Position numbers and translations under genes: made by a program
Part shown: piece after piece, positions 1 to 24,697 of the stretch
How the letters are laid out: every line of letters starts with the position of its first letter
Position numbering within the stretch: position 1 is the stretch's first letter
The notes under the pieces: model-generated
Database searches by the model: none
What the model was told of the DNA's origin: nothing
The model's input: the letters and a program-made list of their open reading frames with translations, nothing else
DNA from: a virus
Lineage: Duplodnaviria; Heunggongvirae; Uroviricota; Caudoviricetes
Strand: one strand, 5' to 3'
IMG/VR virus record: IMGVR_UViG_2579779116_000018
Location: 1-37,371 of that record
DNA length: 37,371 nucleotides

Positions 1-270
1 ATGAACATTACCAAAGCAATCCATAACTATGCTCGCCGCCGTGGAATCGAACTTCAACTCGAAGATGAGCAGGTTAGATTCTGGGAGATAGAACAAGATT
101 GTGAATGGATGTTCAGCTATTCGATTGCTCAATGTGGTTGCTTGTTCTGGAAAGGTAATGTGTATCTTCCTCGCGATATTAAAGAAGAACTTCCGGCGAT
201 GATTGGCACCGATAAGAAGTTAAAGGAAGTCTTAGATTTTATCTACAAAGAGTTTATTAGCAAGAAGTAA
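1..270 (+). CDS. hypothetical protein (89 aa)
   Basis: ORF starting at window edge, followed by intrinsic terminator at 281-307; no recognisable motif. May be 5' truncated by the window. Confidence 0.45.
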   Translation: MNITKAIHNYARRRGIELQLEDEQVRFWEIEQDCEWMFSYSIAQCGCLFWKGNVYLPRDIKEELPAMIGTDKKLKEVLDFIYKEFISKK

Positions 271-280
271 TTTCTAATTT

Positions 281-307
281 GGTGGGTGCAATTCCCACCG
301 CTTTTTA
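281..307 (+). terminator. rho-independent terminator
   Basis: Hairpin GGTGGG-tgcaattc-CCCACC followed by GCTTTTT directly after the stop of ORF 1-270. Confidence 0.6.
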
Positions 308-322
308 AATGGAGAATCAAAC

Positions 323-403
323 ATGTTAGCTTTTATCTCATTCGTGGGAGGTAGTCTCACAACTATGATCAGCCTTTCTTATATTGTCGTTAGTATGGGG
401 TGA
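323..403 (+). CDS. small hydrophobic peptide (26 aa)
   Basis: ATG at 323 preceded by TGGAGAA about 7 nt upstream; product MLAFISFVGGSLTTMISLSYIVVSMG is hydrophobic. Below the ORF-track size cutoff; found by hand. Confidence 0.3.
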   Translation: MLAFISFVGGSLTTMISLSYIVVSMG

Positions 404-406
404 GCA

Positions 407-532
407 ATGAAACAATTTCATGATGGCATTTCATCTAAGACATTCAAGAAAGAATATAGCGGATTGTGTATTAACTGGATTGATTTGATTGGTGCGGTTG
501 TGTTTGGTCTGGTAATCAGCATCAACTTTTAA
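407..532 (+). CDS. small membrane protein (41 aa)
   Basis: ATG at 407 preceded by GGGGTGAG; C-terminal hydrophobic stretch LIGAVVFGLVISINF. Found by hand. Confidence 0.35.
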   Translation: MKQFHDGISSKTFKKEYSGLCINWIDLIGAVVFGLVISINF

Positions 533-533
533 C

Positions 534-549
534 GATATAAATATATCGT
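534..549. promoter_or_regulatory. 16 bp perfect palindrome CGATATAAATATATCG (possible operator)
   Basis: Perfect inverted repeat 30 nt upstream of the start of the 578-1624 gene; AT-rich core resembles a -10 element. Confidence 0.3.
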
Positions 550-577
550 AATTCAGATAACAAGAGGAAATTCTACT

Positions 578-1624
578 ATGAAAATTAGGTTTGCGTGTGA
601 TATTGATTGGATTAAAAACAGTAGTCGTTCAATATCACCTAGTGTATTCGAATCTCGCATAATCGCTCTGTGTAAAGAAATTAACTATGAATTTCTTGGA
701 TTCTATGGTGAGTGGAAAGGGATTAAAACAAAACTTGTTCTAAAATGTAGTGAGGGGCATGTTTATAATTCTGCCACAATCGATGGATTTATTGGTTCTG
801 GGCGTCGTTGTCCTGAGTGCAAAAAGATTAATCTGGTAAAGAAAAAAATTCGTGCAATCTCTCCCGAAGAATATACGCGACGTCTTAATGATGTATGCCT
901 AGAAGATGGTTATACATTCATTGGATTCTATGGTGAGTGGAAAGGTAACGAGACAAAAGTAATCATGCGGTGTCCTCATGGTCATGAATATAACACAGCC
1001 ACTATAAACAGCTTTCTATGTGGTATTCGTTGTCCTGAATGTAAGCGAGACAAGCTAATAGCACGAAATACAATTTCTATTGAAGAGTATAACGAAAATA
1101 TAGAAAATATGTGTTCGTCTATCGGTTATGTTTATCATGGTATTGTTGGAGAATGGAAAGGGTATAACACTAAAATATCCCTTACTTGTTCGGCTGGTCA
1201 TACATTCAAGACGGCATCTATTAGAAGTTTTCTGTATAATGGTAGCCGTTGTCCTTGTTGTGCAAGTTACGGTTATAACGTGGCTAAAGCTGGTTATCTA
1301 TATGTACAGCACGTCACGGGCGAAGTTGAAGCCATTAAATTTGGAATCACCAACCGAAAACCGGAACAGCGAATGAGACAGCACATCAACCGTTCAAAGC
1401 TGAATCATGAACTTGTGTTCTCTATGAAATTTGAAGACGGGCAAAAGGCGCTGGATGTAGAAACGAGAATTAAGCAGATCTGGAAGGGGAAGACCGGATA
1501 TGTTTCAAGAGAGTTAATGGAAGATGGTTTTACAGAAACATTACCAGCCGAAATTATGAACGTTTTTTTAAAAGATGTTAAATCGATGTGCAATCTTGCT
1601 GTAATGAATATTAGCCTCGCCTAG
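578..1624 (+). CDS. protein with three tandem Zn-ribbon-like repeats and C-terminal T5orf172 (GIY-YIG-like) domain (348 aa)
   Basis: RBS AAGAGGAA before ATG. Three copies of about 50 aa unit F-x-G-E-W-K-G...T-K...C-x-x-G-H...R-C-P-x-C; C-terminal GYLYV...KFGIT.RKPEQRMRQH matches the T5orf172 signature from memory. Paralogous to 3405-4580 and 4735-5304. Confidence 0.75.
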   Translation: MKIRFACDIDWIKNSSRSISPSVFESRIIALCKEINYEFLGFYGEWKGIKTKLVLKCSEGHVYNSATIDGFIGSGRRCPECKKINLVKKKIRAISPEEYTRRLNDVCLEDGYTFIGFYGEWKGNETKVIMRCPHGHEYNTATINSFLCGIRCPECKRDKLIARNTISIEEYNENIENMCSSIGYVYHGIVGEWKGYNTKISLTCSAGHTFKTASIRSFLYNGSRCPCCASYGYNVAKAGYLYVQHVTGEVEAIKFGITNRKPEQRMRQHINRSKLNHELVFSMKFEDGQKALDVETRIKQIWKGKTGYVSRELMEDGFTETLPAEIMNVFLKDVKSMCNLAVMNISLA

Positions 1625-1637
1625 CGCGGGGCTTTTT
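1613..1637 (+). terminator. rho-independent terminator overlapping stop codon
   Basis: AGCCTCGC-ctagc-GCGGGGCT hairpin (one G-U pair) followed by TTTTT; stop TAG of the upstream gene lies in the loop. Confidence 0.6.
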
Positions 1638-1651
1638 ACTATGGGGTTATT

Positions 1652-3331
1652 ATGAAAACTAAGTTGTATTCATATATCCGCTTCTCGTCTATGAAGCAAG
1701 CGGATGGTAGTTCTTATGAACGCCAGAAGAGAACAGCGAAAGAGATAGCCGCAAAATATGATCTTGAGCTAGTTACAAGCTATCAGGATTTTGGTGTATC
1801 TGCATTCAAAGGGGCTAACAGTAGAACAGGTGCACTATCTCGCTTTCTGGATGAGATTGGTCGATCTGTTCCGGTTGGTAGCTGGCTGGTTGTGGAAAAC
1901 TTGGACCGTATCTCTCGCCAATCCATCATTGAAGCACAAGAGCTATTTCTCTCGATCATACGTAGGGGAATAACCATTGTCACTGGTATGGATGGGAAAG
2001 TGTATAGCCGCGAATCGGTTAATGCTAATCCCATCGATTTACTATTGAGTGTCATGTTGTTTGCGAGAGCTAACGAGGAAAGCCAGACTAAGCGCAATCG
2101 TACTAACTCAAGCGCACTGATTAAGATTAAGTCGCATCAAGAAAATCCCCAGAATCCGGCAGTGGCAATCGAGGAAGTTGGGAAGAATATGTGGTGGACG
2201 GATACCACTTCCGGTTATGTGTTGCCTCATCCTACATACTTCCCTGTTGTTCAGGAGATTGTGGAATTACGGAAGAATGGACGTTCAACCGCCGAAATAC
2301 TGGATCACCTTAACGAGACATATGCACCACCACCAGCAGTAAGCAACAAGAAGCATTCAAAATGGTCACGGGCAATGGTTGAAAGGTTGTTTCATACCCG
2401 CGCTTTGATTGGTATCAAGGAGGTCTCTGTCGATGGTGTTAACTATGAGTTAAAGGATTATTACCCTCGTGTTATTGATGATGCTACGTTCTATCACCTT
2501 AAGAAAAATATTGGTGCTAGAGCATGGAACTTTGGAGACAAGGAAGAAGTTAAACCGATCCCCCTGCTTAGTGGTATTGGCCTATTGAAATGTGATCATT
2601 GCGGTTGCGCTATGGTTAAAGTGAAGGGAACGAACAAACGTTCTGACCAGTATCGTTATACATGTGATGCGACCCGTTCACGTAGACTTGATTGCGAGCA
2701 TCCAAACTGGAGTTTTCGAGGTGATCAATTAGAGAAAGCTGTATTGCAATTGCTGGCTGATAAAATCTGGATTGCTGAGGACAAGGCTAATCCGGTTCCG
2801 GCGTTGAAAGTACAGGTTGATGAAATATCACGCAAGATTGATAACCTGATTGCCCTTTCTGCTATGACAGGAGCAACGAAGGAGCTAGCCGATCAGATTA
2901 CTACCCTCAATAGCGAGCGTGAAACACTCTACAATCAGATCAAGATGGCAGAAGAGGAAATGTATTCTGTTGACTCTCAAGGCTGGGAGAAGCTCGCAGA
3001 ATTTGATTTAGAAGATGTTTACAACGAGGAACGACTAAAGGTCCGGTTTAAGATTAAGCAAGCTCTAAAGCGGATCGGGTGTAGCAGGATTGACAGAAAC
3101 AAAAACTTGTTTGTACTGGAATACATCGATGGAAAGACCCAGAGAGTTGTAATAGAAAATTCAAGAGGAACGAGGAAAGGACAAATCTTTGTCGATTTGA
3201 AAACTATCAATGATAGGCAGATTCTGGAGAGTAACGGGCTTGTTCTGCATCCATGTTTAGACATGCTGACAGATAAGAACTGGAAACCAGAAGAGGAAAT
3301 ACCAGGTCCATTACAGGAATTTGGAATTTAA
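1652..3331 (+). CDS. large serine recombinase (559 aa)
   Basis: N-terminal resolvase-type catalytic domain (YSYIRFSSMKQ with candidate nucleophilic Ser), recombinase domain, Cys-rich zinc ribbon CDHCGC...YTCDATRSRRLDCEH, and C-terminal coiled coil: the typical large serine recombinase architecture. Confidence 0.9.
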   Translation: MKTKLYSYIRFSSMKQADGSSYERQKRTAKEIAAKYDLELVTSYQDFGVSAFKGANSRTGALSRFLDEIGRSVPVGSWLVVENLDRISRQSIIEAQELFLSIIRRGITIVTGMDGKVYSRESVNANPIDLLLSVMLFARANEESQTKRNRTNSSALIKIKSHQENPQNPAVAIEEVGKNMWWTDTTSGYVLPHPTYFPVVQEIVELRKNGRSTAEILDHLNETYAPPPAVSNKKHSKWSRAMVERLFHTRALIGIKEVSVDGVNYELKDYYPRVIDDATFYHLKKNIGARAWNFGDKEEVKPIPLLSGIGLLKCDHCGCAMVKVKGTNKRSDQYRYTCDATRSRRLDCEHPNWSFRGDQLEKAVLQLLADKIWIAEDKANPVPALKVQVDEISRKIDNLIALSAMTGATKELADQITTLNSERETLYNQIKMAEEEMYSVDSQGWEKLAEFDLEDVYNEERLKVRFKIKQALKRIGCSRIDRNKNLFVLEYIDGKTQRVVIENSRGTRKGQIFVDLKTINDRQILESNGLVLHPCLDMLTDKNWKPEEEIPGPLQEFGI

Positions 3332-3367
3332 GCGGCCTAAATCGACGTATAACGAGCTAAAACAGTT

Positions 3368-3396
3368 AAGGGGTACATTCGTACCCCTTTTTAATT
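3368..3396. terminator. bidirectional intrinsic terminator between convergent genes
   Basis: Perfect hairpin AAGGGGTAC-attc-GTACCCCTT followed by TTTTTAATTT; sits between the recombinase stop (3331) and the minus-strand gene stop (3405). Confidence 0.7.
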
Positions 3397-3404
3397 TAAT
3401 TGCA

Positions 3405-4580
3405 TTAGAGAGCGTTTAAGAGAGTATTAAAGTATTCATCCATTAAATCAGGATTGTTGTCATCAATACAGAAAAATTCCGGTTTATTGATGCCGTAGAA
3501 GTGAGTATGTAGCTTGAATGTATCGTCATCAAATACATCTTTCGGAGATACCCACATATTAGCCTCGTCCGGTTGATTGGTTAGGTAGTCATAAACCAGT
3601 TGCTGTAAGTGCGGCAACTCATCAATAGTCAGAGTTTCCGACCATCCATCCTTGAAATCTTTGTAGGGTGCTGCATGAGTCTTGAAGCGTTGTTTTACTT
3701 CATGCTCTAAATCGGCAGCTTTCCAACCATCCTCAAACTCATGAGTAAAGATTAAGCGGTGAGTGAAGTTGCTCTTTCTGGTTTGTTCTCTCATTCGTTC
3801 TTCTGGTTTTCGGGTAGTGATTCCAAATTTAATAAATTTGTCATCTAATAATTGAATGTAGAAACTAGCCTTACCCTGATAAGTCCGGTTAGACAGTTGC
3901 ACCAGTTGGTCTTTAATGCAAAGCGGACAAGTGAAAGAATCAGCACATCTTAAATGAGATTCCCATTCGTGGTTATGTGACTTGCAATAGGTTTTAAATT
4001 TAACATCCTTTAGGTGTGGGGTGTTTATGGTAAATCCTTTGAAGATGTAAGGTGTAGTCTCGCAACGTGCATTGATGATTGTCTCTTTGTCCTTAATAAC
4101 TTCATCAAAAGTCTTGCCACTTCTTACCCGTTGGGATTTTTCAGCCATACAGATTTTACAATCAAAATCAAAATCATCCTTGAGAGCATGTAATAGAGAT
4201 GGCGTCATGATTTGATTGTGTATAGGACACAAAACACGGGCTTTTGTCTTGTTGCGCCCTTTCCATTCTCCTTGCCATCCTAGAAACTTCTTTCCCTTCT
4301 CATTACAACGAGATTCCATTTTCAACCATACAGCCTTTTCAGTCTGGAATAACTCACCCCCGTTAGTATCTTCCAGTTTGCGTAATTTGTAGTCCTTATA
4401 TTCTTGTGTATCTAAATTGTAGATTCGAAAGTAAGTGTGATTACCCTTCCACGGTAGGATAAATCCACCAAATACGAAAGCAGGTTCCAGTTTAGCGATG
4501 ATTCGTTGTTGGTACTCTTCCGGCGATAAACCGCGAGTTTTCTTAACAAAAGGAATTTCGGCAGCGTAAGCAAGTTTCAT
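3405..4580 (-). CDS. Zn-ribbon-repeat / T5orf172 domain protein, paralog B (391 aa)
   Basis: Start moved from ORF-track 4691 to the internal ATG at 4578-4580, which has RBS AGAGGAAACTACT upstream and gives an N-terminus (MKLAYAAEIPFVKKTRGLSPEEY) matching the paralogs. WKG/C...CP.C repeats and C-terminal FYIQL...KFGITTRKPEERMREQ. Confidence 0.75.
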   Translation of the reverse strand: MKLAYAAEIPFVKKTRGLSPEEYQQRIIAKLEPAFVFGGFILPWKGNHTYFRIYNLDTQEYKDYKLRKLEDTNGGELFQTEKAVWLKMESRCNEKGKKFLGWQGEWKGRNKTKARVLCPIHNQIMTPSLLHALKDDFDFDCKICMAEKSQRVRSGKTFDEVIKDKETIINARCETTPYIFKGFTINTPHLKDVKFKTYCKSHNHEWESHLRCADSFTCPLCIKDQLVQLSNRTYQGKASFYIQLLDDKFIKFGITTRKPEERMREQTRKSNFTHRLIFTHEFEDGWKAADLEHEVKQRFKTHAAPYKDFKDGWSETLTIDELPHLQQLVYDYLTNQPDEANMWVSPKDVFDDDTFKLHTHFYGINKPEFFCIDDNNPDLMDEYFNTLLNAL

Positions 4581-4639
4581 AGTAGTTTCCTCTAAAATAA
4601 TAAGTTCACTACTATTTATTAGAGAAAATTGTCTTACTA

Positions 4640-4667
4640 TTGCATTCTCTATCTGAATGTGTATAAT
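4640..4667 (+). promoter_or_regulatory. putative sigma70 promoter for the 4735 gene
   Basis: TTGCAT (4640-4645), 16 bp spacer, TATAAT (4662-4667), in the divergent intergenic region 4581-4734. Confidence 0.4.
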
Positions 4668-4734
4668 ACGCGACCCTAAATCCCAAACCAACCATATTGA
4701 GGTTATGCCTATAAGTTAAAAAAGTGAGGTCTAT

Positions 4735-5304
4735 ATGATTCCAGTAATGGCTAAAGATATTGTTTTTACTCCTAAATCCTCCCGTGCTGTAACTCCATCG
4801 GCATTAGAACAACGCATTCTGACTCACATCAAAGATAAGGACTTACCATTAGTCTTTCATGGCTTTCTGGGTGAGTTTAAAGGGCTTCATTCAAGAATTG
4901 CTCTAACATGTACCCGATGCGGTAATAGAGCCGACAAATCAGCTACTAACCTGCTTAATGAAGGTAAACGATGTGTTTGCTTCAATAGTGACTACTTTCA
5001 ATATAAAGCGGGTGTGCCTTATCTCTATGTAATGAAGTCTGGGGATATTGGTAAATTTGGTGTTACAAAGTCAATCATCAAGCGACGTGTTAATCTGGGT
5101 GTACGCAATCCCGGTCATAACTTTGATATTGTCTTTGCTGGTGAAATGCCATCAATGAAACATGCTTTAGCCACTGAAAGAGCAATAAAGAGATTACTGG
5201 ATGTGGGTATAGGCGGGATTGAATACGGCAAAACTGAAACATTCCACTACTGCAATAAATCACTAAACAATATAAAGAATATTGCAAGTGTGGAGTGGAA
5301 CTAA
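4735..5304 (+). CDS. Zn-ribbon / T5orf172 domain protein, paralog C (189 aa)
   Basis: RBS GTGAGGT before ATG; one GEFKG...C..C...RCVC repeat and C-terminal PYLYV...GKFGVTKSIIKRR T5orf172-like segment. Confidence 0.75.
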   Translation: MIPVMAKDIVFTPKSSRAVTPSALEQRILTHIKDKDLPLVFHGFLGEFKGLHSRIALTCTRCGNRADKSATNLLNEGKRCVCFNSDYFQYKAGVPYLYVMKSGDIGKFGVTKSIIKRRVNLGVRNPGHNFDIVFAGEMPSMKHALATERAIKRLLDVGIGGIEYGKTETFHYCNKSLNNIKNIASVEWN

Positions 5305-6794
5305 TGCAAGATATTAAAATTCATTTTCAAGATTACAGTTTCGTTAAGGTTGATTGCTCTCCTTCTATCGGAATGGAATTAAGAGATTATTTCTCTTTTG
5401 AGGTTGAAGGGGCTAGGTTTAGCCCCCGATACAAGTATTCAGGCTGGGATGGACGAATAAGACTGTTTACGCATGAGAATACCCTACCAATTGGACTATT
5501 AAAAACGTTGGGTGTCTTTGTTAAAAATATGGGGTATTCAGTCTGGATTGACCCGCGATTGCTTGAGAAGGAAGATGTAACCAAAGAACAGATTGATTCA
5601 TGGATTGATTCTTTAGAAGTGTATTCCGGTAGCAATAAAATCAATCCTTACTGGTATCAGCGTGAAGCAGTCTTTCAGGGTATTCATAATCGCCGTAGAA
5701 TGCTGGTTCTTCCTACCAGTGCGGGTAAGTCATTGATTGCTTGTATGCTGTCTCGTTGGTACTTAGAGCATTACACCGGAAAGGTGTTAATCATTGTCCC
5801 GACTACATCGCTAGTGGTTCAAATGAGGGATGATTTCATCGATTATCGGTTATTCCCTTATGAAGCAATCCATACAATGATGAGTGGTAGCGGGAAACAT
5901 CCGGGAGACAGGTTAATCACGGTTAGTACCTGGCAATCAGCTTGCAAGATGCCTCCTGAATGGTTCAAACAATATGGAATGTTGATAGTTGATGAATCGC
6001 ATAAGGCTAGTGCCAAAAATATTACCAATATCATTAACGGAATGAATCATTGCCAATTTAAGATCGGCATGACTGGTTCCCCGAAAGAATCAAAGTGCCA
6101 TTTAATGCAGTATGTCGGGCTTTTCGGTGATATTTCCAAGATCGTGAGTATTGACCGCCTGATGGAAGAAGGGCAGGTGACAAAACTGAAAATTAACTGT
6201 CTTTTCCTTCGTTATACCGATGAGGAATGTAGCGCGGTTAAGGGGAGAGAATATGCGGAAGAGATCAAGTATATTACATCTAACCCACGACGTAATAAGT
6301 TTGCTTGCAATTTGGCGCTAAAACTCGCTAAGAAGGGCGAAAACGTATTCCTGATGTTCCGCAATACTAAGCACGGAAAACTTATGTATGACGCGTTACA
6401 GAAGGTACACGACAAGGTTTATTATATTGACGGTGGAGTTAAGACAGAAGAACGTGATGAATTTAAGAAAATGGCGGAGGGTGACACCGGGATCATTTGT
6501 GTTGCGTCTTATGGTGTGTTCTCTACTGGTGTTTCAATTAAGAATTTGCACCATGTTATTTTCGGTCATCCAGTGAAGGAATCAACTATCGTTCGTCAGA
6601 GTATCGGTCGTGCATTGCGTAAACATGGTTCTAAGGATATTGCAACGGTCTGGGATCTTATAGATCATCTGTGTATATTCGGTCGTAACGGAAAAATCAA
6701 GCATAAAAATTATGCGGTAAAACATGCACTTGAGAGAATCCGCTATTATCTAACCGACAAGTTCAGATATGCAACTAAAACAATTGCTATATAA
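5304..6794 (+). CDS. SF2 DEAD/DEAH-box DNA helicase (about 496 aa)
   Basis: Walker A LPTSAGKS, DESH box (LIVDESHKAS), motif III MTGSPK, motif VI VRQSIGRALR. Start taken as ATG 5304 (RBS GGAGTGG) rather than the ORF-track GTG at 5295. Confidence 0.85.
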   Translation: MQDIKIHFQDYSFVKVDCSPSIGMELRDYFSFEVEGARFSPRYKYSGWDGRIRLFTHENTLPIGLLKTLGVFVKNMGYSVWIDPRLLEKEDVTKEQIDSWIDSLEVYSGSNKINPYWYQREAVFQGIHNRRRMLVLPTSAGKSLIACMLSRWYLEHYTGKVLIIVPTTSLVVQMRDDFIDYRLFPYEAIHTMMSGSGKHPGDRLITVSTWQSACKMPPEWFKQYGMLIVDESHKASAKNITNIINGMNHCQFKIGMTGSPKESKCHLMQYVGLFGDISKIVSIDRLMEEGQVTKLKINCLFLRYTDEECSAVKGREYAEEIKYITSNPRRNKFACNLALKLAKKGENVFLMFRNTKHGKLMYDALQKVHDKVYYIDGGVKTEERDEFKKMAEGDTGIICVASYGVFSTGVSIKNLHHVIFGHPVKESTIVRQSIGRALRKHGSKDIATVWDLIDHLCIFGRNGKIKHKNYAVKHALERIRYYLTDKFRYATKTIAI

Positions 6795-6796
6795 CA

Positions 6797-6827
6797 AAAA
6801 AGCGCCCACTAGAGGCGCTTTAATTTT
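6797..6827. terminator. bidirectional intrinsic terminator
   Basis: AGCGCC-cactaga-GGCGCT hairpin flanked by A-run on one side and T-run on the other, between convergent helicase and M15 peptidase genes. Confidence 0.65.
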
Positions 6828-7179
6828 ATCCATTCCATCGTGATTTTTTCGATCTGGAATCGATATGCGTAAAGGTTTTATATTTGCCTAAGCCGTATTG
6901 AGTAGGATATTTCCCATCAAGATAAGCATGGACAATATCAGGGGAGACACCCTTGATCACAATGTCAGCCGCACGGCCTCGAACGTGATAGCTGTTGGTT
7001 GCACCGCCTACATTCTTGTTATGAGTTGGGCAACGGTTCCCACTGTTAATAATTACTGGTTTCCCGAAGTGTTCGCGTACATCCTCAAGAATTACCAGTA
7101 ATTCAGCGTCGATTGTATCATAATCACATTTTCCACATTTACATTTAAATTCCTTGCGAGAAAAATGTTTGCTTAACAT
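6826..7179 (-). CDS. peptidase M15-family zinc peptidase, candidate endolysin (117 aa)
   Basis: N-terminal LSKHFSRKEF and SGNRCPTHNKNVGGATNSYHVRGRAADI ... THID match the M15 (VanY / L-Ala-D-Glu peptidase-like) metal-binding signature; strong RBS TAAGGGGGT; last gene of the late operon. Confidence 0.7.
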   Translation of the reverse strand: MLSKHFSRKEFKCKCGKCDYDTIDAELLVILEDVREHFGKPVIINSGNRCPTHNKNVGGATNSYHVRGRAADIVIKGVSPDIVHAYLDGKYPTQYGLGKYKTFTHIDSRSKKSRWNG

Positions 7180-7188
7180 ATTACCCCC

Positions 7189-7536
7189 TTAGATCATTTC
7201 GAAGATATAACCAATAAAGCGCATACCCTTGATATAATAAGGAGCAGTGCCTACACACACCGCGCGTGCATCACCCAGACAGTTAAAGCTATAAGGATTA
7301 ACTACATCGACTTCTTGCCCGACACGAAAACGATACTTAGGACGTTTAGCCAATGTAGCGACACAAAACACGGTCCCTTTTTCATGATCGCGGATACATT
7401 CTTTATATTGTTTATGTTTAACTCTCTTCGCCTCAAAATCATAGGTCATTGATTCTGGGCTAATGCCATTAATAAAAATACCGGAAAGCTGATCGACCGG
7501 ATAAGTAGGAAATTCAGTGAAAATATTTTTAGCCAT
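7189..7536 (-). CDS. hypothetical protein (115 aa)
   Basis: RBS TGGGGGTATAAC before ATG; tightly packed in the late operon; no motif recognised. Confidence 0.6.
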   Translation of the reverse strand: MAKNIFTEFPTYPVDQLSGIFINGISPESMTYDFEAKRVKHKQYKECIRDHEKGTVFCVATLAKRPKYRFRVGQEVDVVNPYSFNCLGDARAVCVGTAPYYIKGMRFIGYIFEMI

Positions 7537-7574
7537 GTTATACCCCCATAAGATTCTATGAGGGTATTTATGGA

Positions 7575-8258
7575 TTAAACGTATTTCATGCGCGATTTAA
7601 TGTGCTTATTAATGTTCTTAAGCATCATTTCCTCGTTGCTTTCCCACGATCCTAGCGTCGAATAACGAGTAGAAATTTTATCCGATTTAACGGCAACAAT
7701 TCGCTTACTCTGTTTCTGGATGCGTTTCTCTAAGCGACGTTTTGCCACCGCCGATCCATTCCTAGCGCGTTTGGTTCGGGATTTCTTAGGCTTGTACTTC
7801 TTCATGATAAAAGTCCCTTCCTTGTTCTCTACCTTGATGAAGTTGCCGTTTTCGATGTTACGCATCATCTTACCGCCTTTGATGGCCTTAATGTTCCCGT
7901 GGGAGTCTAAGACCTTACCGTTGGCGATTGGAACTAGCTTATTGATTTTGCCCCCATCGAAATAGTGTTTCAGATAGTCGTCCTGACTGCCGATCTTCTT
8001 GTCCTTATCCCTTGCGCCCTTGATGAAGATTTGGTGTCTGGTCCCTGATCGGTTCTTGTAGTTGGTATTACCTACAGCTTGCTGAGTCCAGCGAGTAGGT
8101 CTATCAACATTCTTGTTAATCTTCTTCTGGAGTGCTCTGGAAGCAAAGATCGCCCCTTCCCCTAGTGCCCTTTCGAATGTATCGGTTGCCTTTTCAGACC
8201 ATTGCCGTAACGCTTTCTTAGTCCTTAGAGCGTTTCGTTTATTGGTACTGGTTGCCAT
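7575..8258 (-). CDS. hypothetical basic protein (227 aa)
   Basis: RBS AGGGGGCTAAC before ATG; Lys/Arg-rich; function unknown. Confidence 0.6.
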   Translation of the reverse strand: MATSTNKRNALRTKKALRQWSEKATDTFERALGEGAIFASRALQKKINKNVDRPTRWTQQAVGNTNYKNRSGTRHQIFIKGARDKDKKIGSQDDYLKHYFDGGKINKLVPIANGKVLDSHGNIKAIKGGKMMRNIENGNFIKVENKEGTFIMKKYKPKKSRTKRARNGSAVAKRRLEKRIQKQSKRIVAVKSDKISTRYSTLGSWESNEEMMLKNINKHIKSRMKYV

Positions 8259-13075: not shown

Positions 13076-13846
13076 TTATTTCTTGAAGTCTTCGTACATT
13101 CTACGAAGGTTGTATTTTGGATGGCCTAAGCTAACCATGATTTGACTCAATTTAACCGCGCCGGGTTTACCGTTTTCAATCCACACGCGCCGGATTTCAT
13201 CGTAATGCTGCCAACAGCCTTGACCTTTAGCAATACGTATAGAATGTGTATATTTCTTGGTAGAGCTTTCTGGTCGCTTGCGCCCTAGATGTGCTTTTCT
13301 AATCTTTTCGCGTGTTTCTTCTGATACAGGTTTACCATAACGGGGGTTATTCTCTCCACGAGTAGCAGCCGATAATTTAGCTAATATTTCTGGGTTTGTT
13401 ACTTTTTTGCCTCTCATTGCACTAGGTTTACCATAGCGATGGTTCTTTTCACCCATTCGAGATGCCGACATTTTAGCTCTAGATTCCGGTGTATGTTTTC
13501 TTCCGTAAAAAGGATGATTTTCACCACCATCAAAACCACCGACACCACCAGGAGCTATATTAAGACATACACCACGCCCCCATTTTTCGCGTGCTGCCTC
13601 CACTAACAGGATTTCACATTCAAACGCTTCCTCGGCAGTATCAAACAATTTTGAACGAACAACTTCAAATTCATATATCGGGGTTTCTGATTCTTTATTT
13701 TTACGCTTCATCATTTTAATAACTTTACCCGATCCCACATATCCATCGTCTAGATTTGTGGTTGTTCTTTTTCCGACGTAATGATAGATTTTACCAGAGC
13801 GATTAGATTTAATAGTGGTGTGATAAACGTAATGGAATTTTTGCAT
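13076..13846 (-). CDS. GIY-YIG homing endonuclease with NUMOD3-type repeats (256 aa)
   Basis: N-terminal HYVYHTT...SGKIYHYVGK...GYVGSG (GIY-YIG module) and three copies of N-x-P-x-Y-G-K/R-x-x-S/T-x-E-T/S-R-x-K-I/M (NUMOD3-like DNA-binding repeats); own RBS; inserted between minor tail genes. Confidence 0.85.
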   Translation of the reverse strand: MQKFHYVYHTTIKSNRSGKIYHYVGKRTTTNLDDGYVGSGKVIKMMKRKNKESETPIYEFEVVRSKLFDTAEEAFECEILLVEAAREKWGRGVCLNIAPGGVGGFDGGENHPFYGRKHTPESRAKMSASRMGEKNHRYGKPSAMRGKKVTNPEILAKLSAATRGENNPRYGKPVSEETREKIRKAHLGRKRPESSTKKYTHSIRIAKGQGCWQHYDEIRRVWIENGKPGAVKLSQIMVSLGHPKYNLRRMYEDFKK

Positions 13847-18280: not shown

Positions 18281-18787
18281 TTAAGAGATTTTCAAAGTCT
18301 GCTTAGTGCCAGTCTTCTTAATGTTATTGAGGAAAGCAGCCGGAGGATTGCTTAACCAATAGTAATGAAAACCGCTTTGCATACTGTTATAAGGAACAGT
18401 GACAGCAGCACCACCCAAATTAACGGTTATATTCCCCGCTCTACCGTTCTGGAGATATACAGCCATAGTAGGAGTACCGCCATTGAATTGACCAACGATA
18501 ACGCCAACCAGATGGCCTACGCCCACGTTTTCGGGGTTCTCCATAGATCCTTTACCGCGCATGTCAGTTACTGGATAGTTTGAAGCAGTTACACCCCAGT
18601 TATTACCCAATGAAGTAGACCATGCAGCAGTAGCAACAACCGTATCCATACCACGACCAGCCATTGCCGACATATTACGCGGAGCCGGAACTTTTAAAGC
18701 TGTTAATGCTTCTTTCATCCATCGCTTACCCGTCACTGATACAGCCGATGACCCGATCCAGCCGGGAACTTTAACGACATTTGCCAT
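18281..18787 (-). CDS. hypothetical structural protein (168 aa)
   Basis: Gly-rich protein between the tail tube candidate and the chaperones; RBS GGAG; function unknown. Confidence 0.55.
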   Translation of the reverse strand: MANVVKVPGWIGSSAVSVTGKRWMKEALTALKVPAPRNMSAMAGRGMDTVVATAAWSTSLGNNWGVTASNYPVTDMRGKGSMENPENVGVGHLVGVIVGQFNGGTPTMAVYLQNGRAGNITVNLGGAAVTVPYNSMQSGFHYYWLSNPPAAFLNNIKKTGTKQTLKIS

Positions 18788-19478: not shown

Positions 19479-22400
19479 TTATTTAGTTGCTTTGAGTTCG
19501 GCTAATTCAGCTTTCGTTTCGGCAAGTTCTTTAGCCATAGCATCAAACTTAGCGCTCATTTCCTGAAACGCCTTAATTAAAAGAGCGTTGACAGCAGAGT
19601 TAGAAATTGTTAAGATCTCTTCTGGCTTATCAGGATCGCCGATCTTAGAAGTTGTTACTGCTTCCGGCAATTCTTTTTCAAGATCCTGAGCAATAATACC
19701 AACTTCATGAGCGATAACAGTGCGGTCCGTCAAAGACTTAACCTTATCGTAGGTGTACACAGTCAAGCGATTAACTTTATCGGTGGCATTCTCCTTATAC
19801 TCTTCCTTGTTGATTTTCAGACGAGCATCAGAACGAATATAAACATCGTTAAAGTTACCATTGCGTCCAGCTTGGAAATCACCGGAGGCGTTAAAGTCAA
19901 AGTTTGTGGTATGGATATGAAGACGTGCCATAGCATTAGTAATAACACCACTAGGAACGTGTACACCCATTGCCGCGATGTGGTCTAAACCCCATTTGGT
20001 CGCTTTCCATACGTTATATGCGGAAGTTTGAGCATTAGGACAATCAACCAATAAGCCAGCAGCGCGAGTTTTCCATTCTGACCATGCACCACCTTGTACT
20101 TCTCCGCGAATCAAACCACGGTCGCTACCGTTTGCATACCCACGTTCTAAGCGAATCATACCAGTCTGGAAAACATGGTCAAATTCTCCGCTGTTATAGT
20201 TTCGAATGCGCATTTGACCTGAGCCATCACCCCAGATAACACCACGGTTAGTACCATTAGCATCCTTAAACCAGAGTTCTTTATTACCATCTCTATACAT
20301 CTGAATTTGGTTATTGGTACGCAAAACATTAGTAACCACCAAATCACCATTTATCCGAGCACGACCACCCGTTTCTAAACTACCAGCAACTCTGAATTGA
20401 ATCGAACCGTTAGAATCACGCTGAGAATATAGATGATAGCTTGTTTCGTCAGCAAGTTCCCACACCTGAGCGCGAGTTTCATTACCCCAAGATTTAACAA
20501 AGAATACAGATTTCGATCCTTCGTCGTTACGTTCCCAATACAGTCTGCTTCCAAGATGTGTGGTTGCGTTCACTTCAACTCGTTTACGTTCGTTGTTGAG
20601 ACGCATTAAATGATTACCAGCATCGCTACCACCTAGTGTAACGTTACCATTGGCTAGGCTATAGATGAACGGCCTAAAGGTATTCCACGGACCCATAGTG
20701 TCGCCTGATTTTGTGCTCATCAGATAAACGTTACTACCGTCATTTCGCCACCATGAACCATAGTTACCATATACAGTACGGAAGCCATCAGCATATAAAG
20801 AAATGAATTGACCGTTAGTATAAACTCGCTTCATATTGCCAGTTTGAAGTTCTATCTGGCCGTCAATATGTTGACGAATAGAACTACCGCCTACATCACT
20901 ATACCATTCAAAAACGTTAGTATCAGCATTGGCATAACCGATCCATCCTTGACGAGTAATATCTCCAGTACGATTATCTTGAAACGCAATATGGTTGGAT
21001 TGACCAGCAGGTCGGCGTAGTGTAATGGCATTAGATCCGCCATTTAACAGCATACGACCAGAAATAATATTACCTTTATGAGTCCCAGCAATAGAGCTAC
21101 TAGATTCAACGGTTAGAATATCCTGAGCATCAGTGGCACCAGTAGCCAGACGATAGCTGGCACCTTGAACAGTCTCATGCCAGATCATTTCATTATAGTT
21201 ACTACGGAATTTACGAATATATTTCCGTCCAGTACCTCTATCATTGCTTAGATGAACAATGTCATAGCTGTTTTGTGTATTGTCGTCAAAACTCAACACA
21301 CCACGTTTATTTTCGGTGTTGAAAAGAGTTACGTTGCGACCACCGATAACACCAACGGAAGGTTTAATTAACGTGGCTTCCGGCGTATCATAAACCGTCA
21401 AACTTACATAAACAGATTTCCCATATTCGACAATAACGTTATCGGTATAACGCTGATATTTCACGTAGATATCATAGTTATCACCGGAAGTATTGACAGC
21501 AAATACCTCAAAATCTTTGTTTGTATTTCTACGGTATGCAATTACGTTAAGACCTTTAGGTCTATCGTTACCACTACGCAGAAGAATTTCTACTACGTCA
21601 ACCTGATCATATGCCGTAACGCTGTAACCATTACCACCATGAATACGGAAAAACACACTACGCCCGTTTTGTGGAATTGTTGCGGTTGCCAATTTGAAAT
21701 ATGCAGATACGTTTTCGCTAGAATTAGGAACAGACATAACGACGTTTTTAACAAACATCTTATCAACTTCTGCTTTAGTGTATGCACCAATCTCGCCAGG
21801 AGTCGGCTTATCACCTTCGTGATACATCTTATAGCTAAAGTTCTTCTGTCCTTCTCTATCAAAACCATAGGTTTCAACACGAGATCCACCAGACGCATAA
21901 CGGAAAGTAAATCCGCGACCGTGCGCTTTACCGGCAGAATGAGGAACGTTAAGGGTCAGATCCATGAGTCCATCTTGTCCATTGGTACGGAAAGCACCAA
22001 AGTAGTTAAGATCTCGCGCTGTCTGATCTTCCAGATAGTTAGCTGTCTTGCTTAACAAATACCCGCCATGCTTAGTATTGGTATTCTTCTTGATGTAAGC
22101 AGCATCGGCACTACCTTCAATAGAATCAATTCGCTGGTTAGCTGCGGCAATTGCGGCATCAGTAGAAGATTTATTCTGGTCTACCTTGTTGTTAATAGCG
22201 GTATGGTTGCTGTTAACAGTGCCAGTAAGGTTACTGATTTTAGTATCAGCATCTTTCTTGTTGTCGGAAACGACCTTTTCAATCGCTGTTTTGTTAGCTG
22301 CAACCGTGCTAGTTAAGCTAGAAATTTTGTTATCTGCATCGGTTTTATTTGCAGTAACAGTTTTAGTTAAGTTGCTAACGTTGGTGTTAGTGGTATTAAC

Positions 22401-22928
22401 TTTGTTGTTAATCGCGGTGTTATTGTCATTAACCGTCGTGGTTAAAGCTGCGATTTTATTGTCCGCATCTCGTTTATTATTTGCTACAGTAGTTTCTATA
22501 GCTGATTTGTTAGATGCAACTGTCCCTGTAAGGTTATTGATCTTAGTATCAGCATCGGTTTTATTTGCCGTGACTGTCTGGGTTAAGTTACTAACCGTGG
22601 TGTTAGTAGCATCAATGCGCTTATTGGTCGCTGTATCTTTCGTGGTAATAGTCTGATTCAGTTCAGCTTTAGCACTAGCCAGATTATTAGCGGCTTCTTG
22701 TTTGTTGGAAGCAATAACACGGTCAGTGCTAGTTTTGTTATTGTCTACTTTCGTATTCAGTTCAGCGTGTTTTTCTGGAGAAACACTAATTTGGACTACG
22801 TTATTATTTTTGTCTTTGGTGTAAATCACATGATCCGCCAACTGTAAGGCGATTTCACCCTGTGATAATTGTTCCGGCGTTGGTTTTTTACCAGCCGTTT
22901 GTGTGCGTTTAAATTGGATTGATTGCAT
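19479..22928 (-). CDS. fibre protein with C-terminal intramolecular chaperone (peptidase S74) domain (1149 aa)
   Basis: C-terminus SDARLKINKEEY...VIAHEVGIIAQDLEKELPEAV...LLIKAFQEM matches the auto-cleaving chaperone domain of T5 L-shaped fibre / endosialidase type; N-terminal third is Thr/Asn-rich tandem repeats; KPTPGEIGAYTKAEVD motif. Confidence 0.85.
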   Translation of the reverse strand: MQSIQFKRTQTAGKKPTPEQLSQGEIALQLADHVIYTKDKNNNVVQISVSPEKHAELNTKVDNNKTSTDRVIASNKQEAANNLASAKAELNQTITTKDTATNKRIDATNTTVSNLTQTVTANKTDADTKINNLTGTVASNKSAIETTVANNKRDADNKIAALTTTVNDNNTAINNKVNTTNTNVSNLTKTVTANKTDADNKISSLTSTVAANKTAIEKVVSDNKKDADTKISNLTGTVNSNHTAINNKVDQNKSSTDAAIAAANQRIDSIEGSADAAYIKKNTNTKHGGYLLSKTANYLEDQTARDLNYFGAFRTNGQDGLMDLTLNVPHSAGKAHGRGFTFRYASGGSRVETYGFDREGQKNFSYKMYHEGDKPTPGEIGAYTKAEVDKMFVKNVVMSVPNSSENVSAYFKLATATIPQNGRSVFFRIHGGNGYSVTAYDQVDVVEILLRSGNDRPKGLNVIAYRRNTNKDFEVFAVNTSGDNYDIYVKYQRYTDNVIVEYGKSVYVSLTVYDTPEATLIKPSVGVIGGRNVTLFNTENKRGVLSFDDNTQNSYDIVHLSNDRGTGRKYIRKFRSNYNEMIWHETVQGASYRLATGATDAQDILTVESSSSIAGTHKGNIISGRMLLNGGSNAITLRRPAGQSNHIAFQDNRTGDITRQGWIGYANADTNVFEWYSDVGGSSIRQHIDGQIELQTGNMKRVYTNGQFISLYADGFRTVYGNYGSWWRNDGSNVYLMSTKSGDTMGPWNTFRPFIYSLANGNVTLGGSDAGNHLMRLNNERKRVEVNATTHLGSRLYWERNDEGSKSVFFVKSWGNETRAQVWELADETSYHLYSQRDSNGSIQFRVAGSLETGGRARINGDLVVTNVLRTNNQIQMYRDGNKELWFKDANGTNRGVIWGDGSGQMRIRNYNSGEFDHVFQTGMIRLERGYANGSDRGLIRGEVQGGAWSEWKTRAAGLLVDCPNAQTSAYNVWKATKWGLDHIAAMGVHVPSGVITNAMARLHIHTTNFDFNASGDFQAGRNGNFNDVYIRSDARLKINKEEYKENATDKVNRLTVYTYDKVKSLTDRTVIAHEVGIIAQDLEKELPEAVTTSKIGDPDKPEEILTISNSAVNALLIKAFQEMSAKFDAMAKELAETKAELAELKATK
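22070..22720 (-). repeat. in-frame tandem coding repeats within the fibre gene
   Basis: Protein-level repeats of the type TVTANKTDADTKI(N/S)NLTGTV..N.TAIN(N)KV recur several times; nucleotide repeats visible. Approximate bounds. Confidence 0.6.
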
Positions 22929-23850: not shown

Positions 23851-24273
23851 TTAAAAACGCGCTAGATAAGAAAATTTAAGGCTAAGTGTCCCAACGATAC
23901 CACCATCACTAGAATCATCGTCATAATCGGTATTAGAGGCTACTGGAGTGATATCTGAAATTGAGAAGCCCAAATCTTTAAAACGTGGGTTATCCGGCTG
24001 AATCTGGATTATCTGGCAAATACCCTCATGAATTTTGGTTTCATGAATCTGAGAATATAATTGCATTTCGATAACGCATTCAGCTTGCATTGCATTACCA
24101 CCACGAACACGCGTATAAGTTTCATTCATGCCAGTGATCCAACAAACCACGTCATCACTAAAGCCTTGCTGAGTTTGTTCTACGTTTAAAGCCAGACCTA
24201 AATCTTGTTCGATAATATCTTGCAAGGCGCGTTTGATTTTCAGTCTAGGCATATTATTAACGGTAGCGAGCAT
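23851..24273 (-). CDS. head-tail connector protein candidate (about 140 aa)
   Basis: Start placed at internal ATG 24271-24273 with RBS AGGGGGT; small protein directly after the capsid gene region, typical position of head completion proteins. Confidence 0.5.
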   Translation of the reverse strand: MLATVNNMPRLKIKRALQDIIEQDLGLALNVEQTQQGFSDDVVCWITGMNETYTRVRGGNAMQAECVIEMQLYSQIHETKIHEGICQIIQIQPDNPRFKDLGFSISDITPVASNTDYDDDSSDGGIVGTLSLKFSYLARF

Positions 24274-24547
24274 GTGTACCCCCTGCCAGAGTGATAAAGC
24301 AATCAGAAGTATTATCACCATTGCGCTTAACGTATTGAACTTTGAAACGCTGATTTTCTACAATGACAATATCACCCTGCTTTAAGTCTCCCTCACGACA
24401 AAATAGAAATTCTGTCTCTGTCATTACCCCTTGTTCGTCGGTAGTAGTAATTTCATGATAAGCACGAATTGATTTACCACCTTCCACCGAAAATACAGGA
24501 GCACTCTTAAACATTCTTGATAATTGTGATTCTGATAATTTGAACAT
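24257..24547 (-). CDS. head-tail connector protein candidate (96 aa)
   Basis: RBS AAGGGGGTAACT; first gene after the capsid terminator; typical position of a head-tail adaptor. Confidence 0.5.
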   Translation of the reverse strand: MFKLSESQLSRMFKSAPVFSVEGGKSIRAYHEITTTDEQGVMTETEFLFCREGDLKQGDIVIVENQRFKVQYVKRNGDNTSDCFITLAGGTHARYR

Positions 24548-24604: not shown

Positions 24605-24697
24605 TAATTATTATTTTGCTTTCGGTGGACGTCCCACCTTTTTAGCTGTGGCTTTCGCCGTAACTACCGGAATTTCTTCCGGCAATTCTTCGTTATT

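Follow-up and report, generated by a model that had tools for sequence, protein, structure and literature searches.

Three Predicted T5orf172-Type Homing Endonuclease Genes in Fixed Slots at the Integrase End of a Temperate Enterobacterial Prophage

Introduction

Zinc fingers of the CapR, DUF723 or DUF4397 type are carried by 200 of the 229 T5orf172 homing endonuclease genes (HEGs) described by Barth, Dunham and Seed (2023, PMC10448857), and many of these HEGs contain several fingers arranged as "beads on a string." T5orf172 HEGs cluster near, or bracket, important genes to form "HEG-islands," and the cognate slots of related HEG-islands hold homologous, dissimilar or different HEGs (PMC10448857). 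The DNA-binding domain of CapR was defined by Netter et al. (2021, PMC8096241) and is common to the N-terminal regions of the putative T5orf172 homing endonucleases of ICP1. The CxxC...CxC motif of this domain was compared with the treble-clef finger of I-TevI, its cysteines are needed for DNA binding, and the CapR of PLE represses the capsid genes of ICP1 (PMC8096241). The present analysis concerns three genes related to these systems, HEG1, HEG2 and HEG3, which lie around and beside a large serine recombinase gene within IMG/VR record IMGVR_UViG_2579779116_000018, a Caudoviricetes sequence of 37,371 nucleotides (nt) that is referred to below, at its full length, as the window.

Two additional nucleases are relevant to this locus. 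ICP1 Odn, as it is cited in PMC10448857, is a domesticated T5orf172 nuclease that cuts satellite origins and whose activity depends on a conserved glutamate. In T4, segE is a free-standing GIY-YIG HEG located between inh and uvsW that targets uvsW (Edgell, Gibb and Belfort 2010, PMC2988022). Relatives of HEG1 are found by tblastn in 544 phage records, including T5, ICP1 and RB49-like phages, and those of T5 and ICP1 are annotated as putative homing endonucleases; the identity to the ICP1 genes is 31% over the finger region. The original prediction, made from the letters of the window, had called the architecture and clustering of the three genes unusual. Since both have been published (PMC10448857, PMC8096241) and relatives occur in 544 phage records, this part of the prediction does not hold, and the locus is a further example, in a temperate prophage, of a known arrangement rather than a new system.

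It is proposed, with a probability of roughly 70%, that the three genes are free-standing T5orf172/GIY-YIG HEGs that occupy three fixed intergenic slots and form a HEG-island-like locus of a temperate phage. The signs of mobility that count in favour of this proposal are sporadic carriage, turnover of alleles, neighbouring genes with discordant similarity, a high-identity tract linked to HEG1, and a homologue at another site. The family membership, domains, predicted fold and conserved residues of the proteins are established, and so are the prophage context, purifying selection, polymorphism of the slots and mosaic breakpoints where the HEGs begin or end.

Domain Architecture of the Three Proteins

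The three open reading frames (ORFs) lie where the original prediction placed them. HEG1 (slot 1, 5' of the integrase gene; 578–1624, plus strand) is a predicted T5orf172-type HEG of 348 amino acids (aa) with matches to CapR, DUF4379 and phrog_681. HEG2 (slot 2; 3405–4580, minus strand), also predicted to be of the T5orf172 type, spans 391 aa from the ATG at 4580 and matches CapR, MUG113, T5orf172 and phrog_681. HEG3 (slot 3; 4735–5304, plus strand) is predicted to be a minimal T5orf172-type gene of 189 aa with matches to CapR and phrog_681; the ATG at 4747, which gives a protein of 185 aa, is the start chosen by PGAP in relatives. HEG2 and HEG3 diverge from an intergenic region (4581–4734) that presumably contains their promoters. 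The genes had also been described as surrounding the recombinase, which is correct for HEG1 and HEG2; HEG3 lies between HEG2 and a uvsW-type helicase gene. Similarly, the terminators said to bound each gene are partly present, as hairpins at 1613–1633, 3368–3389 and 6799–6821. The first of these is terminator-like, lies on the plus strand and overlaps the stop codon of HEG1. No hairpin follows HEG3, the stop codon of which overlaps the start of uvsW (TAATG, 5302–5306).

The homology and internal repeats that had been claimed for the three genes are borne out by BLASTP and by comparison of the individual repeat units. HEG1 and HEG2 share 29% identity over 340 aa (E = 3e-29), HEG1 and HEG3 share 33% over 140 aa (E = 7e-15), and the best segment shared by HEG2 and HEG3 has 32% identity over 53 aa (E = 1e-4), so that the genes are distant homologues, with similarity well beyond chance. 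Recent duplication in situ was considered as their origin and rejected, as the proteins are only 29–33% identical and the nucleotide repeats are only short matches of conserved motifs. All three proteins match the "endonuclease" family phrog_681, with E values of 1.5e-73 (HEG1), 1.6e-42 (HEG2) and 2.5e-18 (HEG3). NCBIfam offers no family for the three proteins, a sequence search of the PDB with HEG1 returned nothing meaningful, and neither the three proteins nor the recombinase matched a defence model in PADLOC-DB at E ≤ 0.01.

The repeats differ in several respects from their original description as zinc ribbons of about 50 aa. The repeat period is 72–75 aa, and it is only the core, from GF.GEWKG to CPxC, that measures about 40–45 aa. 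HEG1 contains a predicted DNA-binding region (623–1279, plus strand) made up of three CapR-type zinc-finger units (aa 16–88, 91–162 and 163–234), which are 38–50% identical in pairwise comparisons (E = 1e-28 to 4e-20) and each contain GEWKG and C-x3-H...C-P-x-C. The motifs are uneven across the genes, and the three units of HEG1 are good ones. HEG2 possesses three eroded units, of which unit 1 lacks any metal ligands and unit 3 lacks the WKG motif, and HEG3 possesses a single unit with FKG and CxxC...CxC. The cysteine columns of HEG1 are present in 26–37 of the 37 homologues that were used for the family alignment and as input for structure prediction (31–37 for most columns); the columns of the second ligand pair in unit 2 are gapped in 11. 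Matches to CapR (PF21817; cutoff 24.2 bits) score 98.5 bits over three stretches in HEG1, 39.2 bits over one stretch in HEG2 and 24.8 bits over one stretch in HEG3. HEG1 also matches DUF4379, a "probable treble clef" family, at 30.2 bits (cutoff 24.5). Among the 37 family members, Pfam identifies CapR in 36, DUF4379 in 26, DUF723 in 16, MUG113 in 14 and T5orf172 in four.

The AlphaFold2 model of HEG1 has a mean predicted local distance difference test (pLDDT) score of 89.9 and a predicted template modelling (pTM) score of 0.40; the low pTM is expected from a beads-on-a-string architecture. In the model, each unit is composed of a helix, three strands and a helix, in which a beta-hairpin bears the first ligand pair and the N-terminus of a helix bears the C-P-x-C motif. 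Consequently, while the zinc-binding signature stands, the model and the CapR and DUF4379 matches suggest that "treble-clef-type zinc finger" describes the repeat-unit fold better than "zinc ribbon" does.

The C-terminal domain of HEG1 (aa 235–348; 1280–1621, plus strand) is predicted to adopt a GIY-YIG-like beta-beta-alpha-beta-alpha fold. The family alignment contains nine invariant or nearly invariant residues, Y242, K254, G256, T258, R265, E295, K299, G317 and E320, which are present in all three window proteins, and the GIY-YIG-type core of Tyr, K-x-G, Arg and Glu is kept in all three. HEG2 exceeds the Pfam cutoffs for T5orf172 (20.5 bits, cutoff 20) and MUG113 (27.5 bits, cutoff 22.3). 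HEG1 and HEG3 fall below the cutoff for T5orf172/MUG113 (13.8 bits), and the assignment of these two proteins as nucleases follows from their homology to HEG2, the conserved residues and the predicted fold. The T5orf172-type domain that had been assigned to all three proteins is thus above threshold in HEG2 and below it in the other two, and predicted fold and conserved residues together point to a GIY-YIG/T5orf172-type nuclease domain in each.

Several further observations were made on these genes. The slot-2 proteins, which include HEG2 and its counterparts in two comparison loci (L005 and L006), have an acidic C-terminal tail of about 50 aa (3405–3560 in HEG2) that ends in ...LLNAL, ...LSPLEDL or ...LSPLEAL; the proteins of slots 1 and 3 have no such tail. 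HEG1 (1334–1388) and HEG2 (3779–3833) are connected, on either side of the integrase gene, by an inverted repeat of 55 nt with 84% complementarity; it corresponds to the conserved coding motif IKFGIT.RKPE.RMR and might in principle provide a substrate for inversion or recombination between these genes. Finally, a HEG-like gene of another family, with a NUMOD3 domain (13076–13846, minus strand; phrog_314, E = 3.9e-32), is found among the tail genes, which brings the HEG-like genes of this 37-kb temperate phage to four.

Slot Contents in Related Prophages

The distribution of the genes was examined in 5426 complete E. coli genomes. Searches of 50,697 deposited phage records by megablast and blastn with the block gave no match except to uvsW, and the comparison was therefore drawn from E. 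coli genomes and assembly contigs. A related prophage is present in 58 of the 5426 genomes, uvsW in 17, HEG2 together with HEG3 in 12, and HEG1 in one. Homology between the window and its relatives stops exactly at the gene borders. The presence/absence polymorphism that the original prediction had proposed to look for in related phages was thus found across E. coli prophages. Universal, syntenic conservation had been named as an argument against mobility, and here the picture is mixed: the block is syntenic in Salmonella and some E. coli prophages and is deleted or replaced in most E. coli prophages.

Slot 1 spans 585–1627. At the DNA level, HEG1 is found only in the window and in E. coli FDAARGOS_1267, and the preceding sequence (window 1–584) is 98.6% identical to prophages that lack HEG1. 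In Salmonella prophages, HEG1 is 90% identical at the aa level. The ORFs that occupy slot 1 in other E. coli prophages (81 and 139 aa) are unrelated and show no similarity to the HEGs.

Slots 2 and 3 lie within a variable region between the integrase and endolysin genes (3419–6792), which is enclosed by two bidirectional terminator-like hairpins, at 3368–3389 on the left edge and 6799–6821 on the right. Homology to relatives that hold a different cargo breaks at 3412–3419, and homology to all relatives returns at 6792. The region contains HEG2, HEG3 and uvsW in 12 genomes. FDAARGOS_1267 has another slot-2 allele, HEG3, a divergent uvsW and a uvsY fragment; CUVET21-37 and EC24 have two other alleles of the family (332 and 193 aa; 26–43% identical) and no uvsW; ES2 and three others have uvsW only; and PI7 has almost nothing. 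Other family alleles are found in the same slots at 26–72% identity in FDAARGOS_1267, CUVET21-37, EC24 and Salmonella, and across E. coli and Salmonella prophages as a whole the slot alleles are 26–98% identical or absent. The 17 uvsW-bearing E. coli prophages always carry HEG2/HEG3, other alleles or their stubs.

The prophages with apparently empty slots retain remnants of the genes. In ES2, the first seven codons of HEG2 are fused to its stop codon and the last 108 nt of HEG3 remain, with short microhomologies at both junctions. In PI7, 46–68-nt stubs of the CUVET-type genes persist. The HEG2/HEG3 intergenic sequence (4557–4661) is kept in prophages that have lost both ORFs. Because ORF stubs are retained, the states of ES2 and PI7 are deletions, and these prophages were rejected as examples of uninvaded target sites.

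A member of the family also occurs outside the three slots. In one related E. coli prophage (L022:6001–7023), a 340-aa homologue, 43% identical to HEG1, occupies an intergenic site at the capsid/tail junction. The site, which is without a gene in the window, lies between the capsid gene and its neighbour and corresponds to about window position 24620.

Mosaicism and Selection

Neighbouring genes are discordant in their similarity between the window and two Salmonella comparison prophages (L019 and L016, given in that order). The aa identity of the first prophage gene, orf89, is 60% to both, that of HEG1 is 90% to both, and that of the integrase is 75% and 76%. Identity then diverges for HEG2 (62% and 30%) and for HEG3 (51% and 72%).

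Sliding identity comparisons delimit a HEG1-linked tract (585–2150, plus strand) that includes HEG1 and the first ~500 nt of the integrase gene, which encode the catalytic resolvase domain. Against Salmonella, identity is 85–94% across HEG1 (700–1650) and 70–89% across the 5' portion of the integrase gene (1700–2200), compared with 45–67% upstream and 54–74% downstream of the tract. Within E. coli, the 5' portion (about 1700–2150) is 94–95% identical to FDAARGOS_1267 and 71–75% identical to prophages that lack HEG1, and from about 2150 onward the HEG1-less prophages are 94–100% identical to the window. The resolvase catalytic domain (Pfam, residues 6–153) ends at this same breakpoint. The switch in identity at ~2150 between HEG1-bearing and HEG1-less prophages suggests that the integrase is a chimera, the N-terminal domain of which probably travelled with HEG1. 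Such a HEG1-linked tract is the pattern that would be expected from co-conversion during homing.

Intactness and the ratio of nonsynonymous to synonymous substitution rates (dN/dS) were assessed for HEG2 and HEG3 in seven genomes, comprising the window and six relatives. Both ORFs are intact in all seven. The dN/dS values are 0.14 for HEG2, 0.11 for HEG3, 0.17 for the integrase and 0.06 for uvsW. HEG2 and HEG3 are under purifying selection and are not decaying.

The Integrase and Its Prophage

The 559-aa large serine recombinase that had been recognized in the window is present at 1652–3331 (plus strand). The Resolvase (PF00239), Recombinase (PF07508) and Zn_ribbon_recom (PF13408) domains all score above their cutoffs, the N-terminal motif YIRFSSMKQ holds the expected serine, and the protein belongs to the integrase family phrog_95 (E = 1e-60). 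A split ycdX borders the prophage end, at a distance of 1.6 kb from the gene. The gene is found at this position in every listed related E. coli prophage (58 of 5426 genomes), where its annotation reads "recombinase family protein" or "recombinase zinc beta ribbon domain-containing protein." Based on its domains, its integrase family, its position at the prophage end and its presence in all 58 relatives, this recombinase is the prophage integrase, with its attB in ycdX. It is a resident gene, neither cassette cargo nor the mover of the nuclease genes.

An exact-protein look-up located the recombinase in assembly GCA_000622265.1, on a contig of 131.8 kb, where it directly adjoins csgDEFG (the curli locus), ycdZ, ycdY and a truncated gene. 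The host flank of the window's prophage matches E. coli at 98.6% identity. Strain BS74R-D, the genome of which is complete, has N- and C-terminal ycdX fragments 37.9 kb apart with the same prophage between them, and the contig of the window has the same layout, with the integrase at the prophage end beside the split ycdX. The window runs from the left end of the prophage onward and covers nearly all of it. The virion module is siphovirus-like (large terminase, portal, protease-capsid fusion, tail tube, tape measure and tail tip), which together with the split ycdX context identifies the studied region as the integrase end of a temperate phage. The prophage PI7 (L004) is a relative with an integrase gene ~85% identical in nucleotide sequence that is inserted in hicB and not in ycdX; the two integrases diverge most after the catalytic domain, which hints at a switch in attB specificity.

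The conserved left flank of the locus is formed by orf89 (1–270, plus strand; 89 aa, phrog_6147), the first prophage gene, with the split ycdX immediately upstream of position 1. The conserved right flank is an M15 peptidase endolysin gene (6826–7179, minus strand; phrog_894, E = 1.9e-45) that is present in all relatives. No RNA family was found by Rfam in window positions 1–8000. ARAGORN reports a 91-nt tRNA-Gln(ttg) at 23996–24086 (plus strand), antisense within a 156-aa ORF (23851–24321), which could be a spurious call. Among the 50,697 phage genomes, only uvsW and the tail-fibre gene of the prophage have nucleotide-level relatives. The lineage is found in 58 complete E. coli genomes and many Salmonella assemblies, and it appears to be an uncultured or unnamed lineage of temperate phages.

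uvsW and Exchange with Virulent Phages

The gene downstream of HEG3 encodes a 496-aa uvsW-type helicase (5304–6794, plus strand) with UvsW_N, ResIII and Helicase_C domains (Pfam). A patch of ~550 nt within this gene (6100–6650, plus strand) is 95–99% identical, by sliding identity, to the virulent Krischvirus phages RB49 and Whisky. Outside the patch, identity to RB49 is 61–74% overall, with 62–74% across the 5' 750 nt and ~61% across the last ~140 nt, and a transitional 150-nt window at 6054 shows 84%. In the FDAARGOS_1267 and Salmonella alleles, the patch region is 59–81% identical both to the window and to RB49. The patch looks like the product of a recent gene conversion, with a virulent T4-like phage as donor and the prophage as recipient. 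Recent wholesale capture of uvsW from a T4-like phage was rejected, given the 61–74% identity outside the patch and the collinear position of the gene in Salmonella prophages; uvsW is an old resident of this prophage lineage.

Additional links to the same virulent phages are apparent. The closest phage homologue of HEG2 is a gene between uvsW and uvsW.1 of the Krischvirus phage Whisky (30% identity); RB49 has no gene between uvsW and uvsW.1. The siphovirus-like tail module contains a T4 gp37-type long tail fibre distal subunit gene (19479–22928, minus strand) and a gp38-type adhesin gene (18281–18787, minus strand), and ~2.5 kb of the fibre gene is 82–92% identical in nucleotide sequence to Krischvirus gp37, marking a second exchange with the same virulent group. 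Some relatives contain a short UvsY fragment just 3' of uvsW, as in FDAARGOS_1267 (L005:10193–10360) and a Salmonella prophage (L017:12075–12203). A 220-nt piece of FDAARGOS_1267 shows ~90% identity to the uvsY.-2/uvsY region of Krischvirus and has the T4-like gene order. These UvsY fragments are a footprint of a larger T4-like segment that was formerly at the locus.

Proposed Mechanism and Alternative Explanations

Nuclease activity, targets and ongoing homing are proposed here by analogy with the T4 Seg and Mob enzymes and the ICP1 T5orf172 HEGs. The one to three independently folded CapR-type fingers of each protein would jointly recognize a long stretch of DNA. If the same cell contains a related phage genome that lacks the allele, whether at induction, during co-infection or upon superinfection of a lysogen, the enzyme would cut near the slot. 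Repair of the break from the HEG-bearing copy would then introduce the HEG along with neighbouring DNA. The bracketed cargo, as in HEG-islands, would be the integrase gene, which lies between HEG1 and HEG2, and uvsW, which lies 3' of HEG2 and HEG3.

The main rival to a HEG-island-like locus is that the three genes are domesticated derivatives of HEGs, kept for the benefit of the prophage or lysogen either as repressors, similar to CapR, or as anti-competitor nucleases, similar to Odn; they might, for example, cut the uvsW region of superinfecting RB49-like phages. Several findings weigh against the HEG reading or fit this rival. The three slots have been kept across E. coli and Salmonella prophages, and in Salmonella prophages at the ycdX site the whole array is collinear at ~71% nucleotide identity, which indicates that the three-slot arrangement is old; such long retention fits domestication too. 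No truly naive empty site was found among the related prophages, those that appear empty being deletion derivatives. Strong purifying selection (dN/dS 0.11–0.14) together with long retention is equally compatible with domesticated, host-beneficial functions. Domestication also draws support from the translational coupling of HEG3 to uvsW that is predicted from the TAATG overlap, from the DNA traffic with Krischvirus seen in the uvsW patch and tail-fibre gene, and from the precedents of CapR and Odn (PMC8096241, PMC10448857). On the other hand, CapR has no nuclease domain, whereas all three proteins retain theirs together with its conserved residues, and none matches a PADLOC model. The genes are deleted or swapped in most related prophages, which is not expected of an important regulator, and turnover of alleles in fixed slots is the reported HEG-island pattern. 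Domestication is consequently judged unlikely, albeit the strongest of the alternatives. That the genes are instead inert relics, dead HEGs that drift toward loss and have no present activity, is very improbable: loss is common, as the stubs of the ES2-type and PI7-type prophages show, and unit 1 of HEG2 has no metal ligands, but the ORFs are intact with low dN/dS across the seven genomes and all of the conserved nuclease residues are retained.

The remaining alternatives assign the nuclease genes to the integrase and are the least probable of all. The original prediction had suggested a selfish or mobile cassette, which in its composite form would have the serine recombinase move itself and the three nuclease genes as a unit. 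Physical adjacency is all that points this way, along with the 55-nt inverted repeat of HEG1 and HEG2 that flanks the recombinase, and the latter is merely the most conserved coding motif of the two genes. All 58 related prophages have the recombinase, at the end beside split ycdX or hicB, while the nuclease genes are present in 1–13 of them and vary independently, and the integrating unit is the whole 38-kb prophage. The composite cassette is therefore already contradicted, and what stands of the suggestion is the selfish character of the nuclease genes. It has an equally small chance that the three proteins are accessory factors of the large serine integrase, such as recombination directionality factors or cofactors that bind the att sites. 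The genes adjoin the integrase gene, and directionality factors of large serine integrases are, according to excerpts of PMC11795197 and PMC12286644, structurally diverse, recruited proteins. However, some 40 prophages have the same integrase but none of these genes, and homologues are found at a capsid/tail junction and in T4-like and T5-like virulent phages that have no integrase. Zinc-finger proteins serving as integrase directionality factors were rejected on this distribution.

If the three genes are HEGs, the locus is a clean natural example, with many sequenced variants, of T5orf172/CapR HEGs that persist, and lie at recombination breakpoints, within a temperate enterobacterial prophage. 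At one of these breakpoints, the catalytic domain of a large serine integrase is swapped precisely at a domain boundary, and another slot reproduces the segE–uvsW arrangement of T4. The integrase chimerism and the virulent-to-temperate gene conversion are the more interesting part. The 95–99% patch directly documents that a virulent T4-like phage and a resident prophage have recently exchanged DNA. A more speculative extension, considered unlikely, is that prophage expression of HEG3 and/or HEG2 leads to cutting of the uvsW region in superinfecting RB49-like Krischvirus phages, which would cause partial exclusion and trigger uvsW conversion, while HEG1 drives exchange of the integrase catalytic domain between E. 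coli and Salmonella prophages to yield functional chimeric integrases; the locus would in that case link temperate and virulent gene pools. Designers of modular nucleases could also take an interest in the multi-finger DNA recognition of these enzymes, should they be active.

Comparison with Known Systems

Similar to the ICP1-type T5orf172 HEGs (PMC10448857), the window genes encode N-terminal zinc fingers, often repeated, and a C-terminal T5orf172 nuclease domain, and they cluster, bracket cargo and swap alleles in fixed slots. In contrast to that system, which belongs to a virulent phage, they are found in a temperate E. coli/Salmonella prophage, and their cargo is an integrase and a helicase rather than an essential heteromeric assembly. 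The identity of the window proteins to any described T5orf172 HEG is low (25–40%).

The zinc-finger domain (PF21817) is shared with the CapR of PLE (PMC8096241), and HEG3 has the same CxxC...CxC ligand pattern. Unlike this repressor, which consists of the N-terminal DNA-binding region only, the window proteins all retain a nuclease-type domain, and most of their units use C-x2/3-H rather than CxxC for the first ligand pair. As with ICP1 Odn, in the account given of it in PMC10448857, a T5orf172 nuclease domain is fused to a sequence-specific DNA-binding module; in that account Odn has a RepA_N domain and satellite-origin targets, and no evidence of such retargeting was found for the window proteins.

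The position of HEG3, directly 5' of uvsW, is the same as that of T4 segE, and the co-conversion of flanks and marker exclusion of the T4 Seg and Mob HEGs provide a model for the mosaic tracts described above. Unlike segE and the other Seg and Mob genes, the window genes represent another branch of the superfamily, have CapR zinc-finger DNA-binding modules and reside in a prophage genome; no sequence match between Seg proteins and the window nuclease proteins was seen.

The HEG-island itself offers the closest comparison in terms of organization. At least two HEGs bracket the cargo (HEG1/integrase/HEG2 and HEG2/HEG3/uvsW), cognate slots contain homologous, dissimilar or absent HEGs, and the boundaries are fuzzy with polar tracts of high identity. 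Several distinctions are evident. The strongest identity between lineages covers HEG1 and the first domain of a cargo gene rather than the whole cargo, and the stretch that is nearly identical to an unrelated phage is the 550-nt patch internal to uvsW. A trait of HEG-islands, nucleotide identity of >90% between phages that have no nucleotide similarity elsewhere, is seen here in partial tracts, in HEG1 (85–94%) and in the uvsW patch (95–99%), and not across the whole island. Furthermore, the cargo, an integrase and an accessory helicase, does not comprise essential phage functions, as uvsW is absent from 41 of the 58 related prophages.

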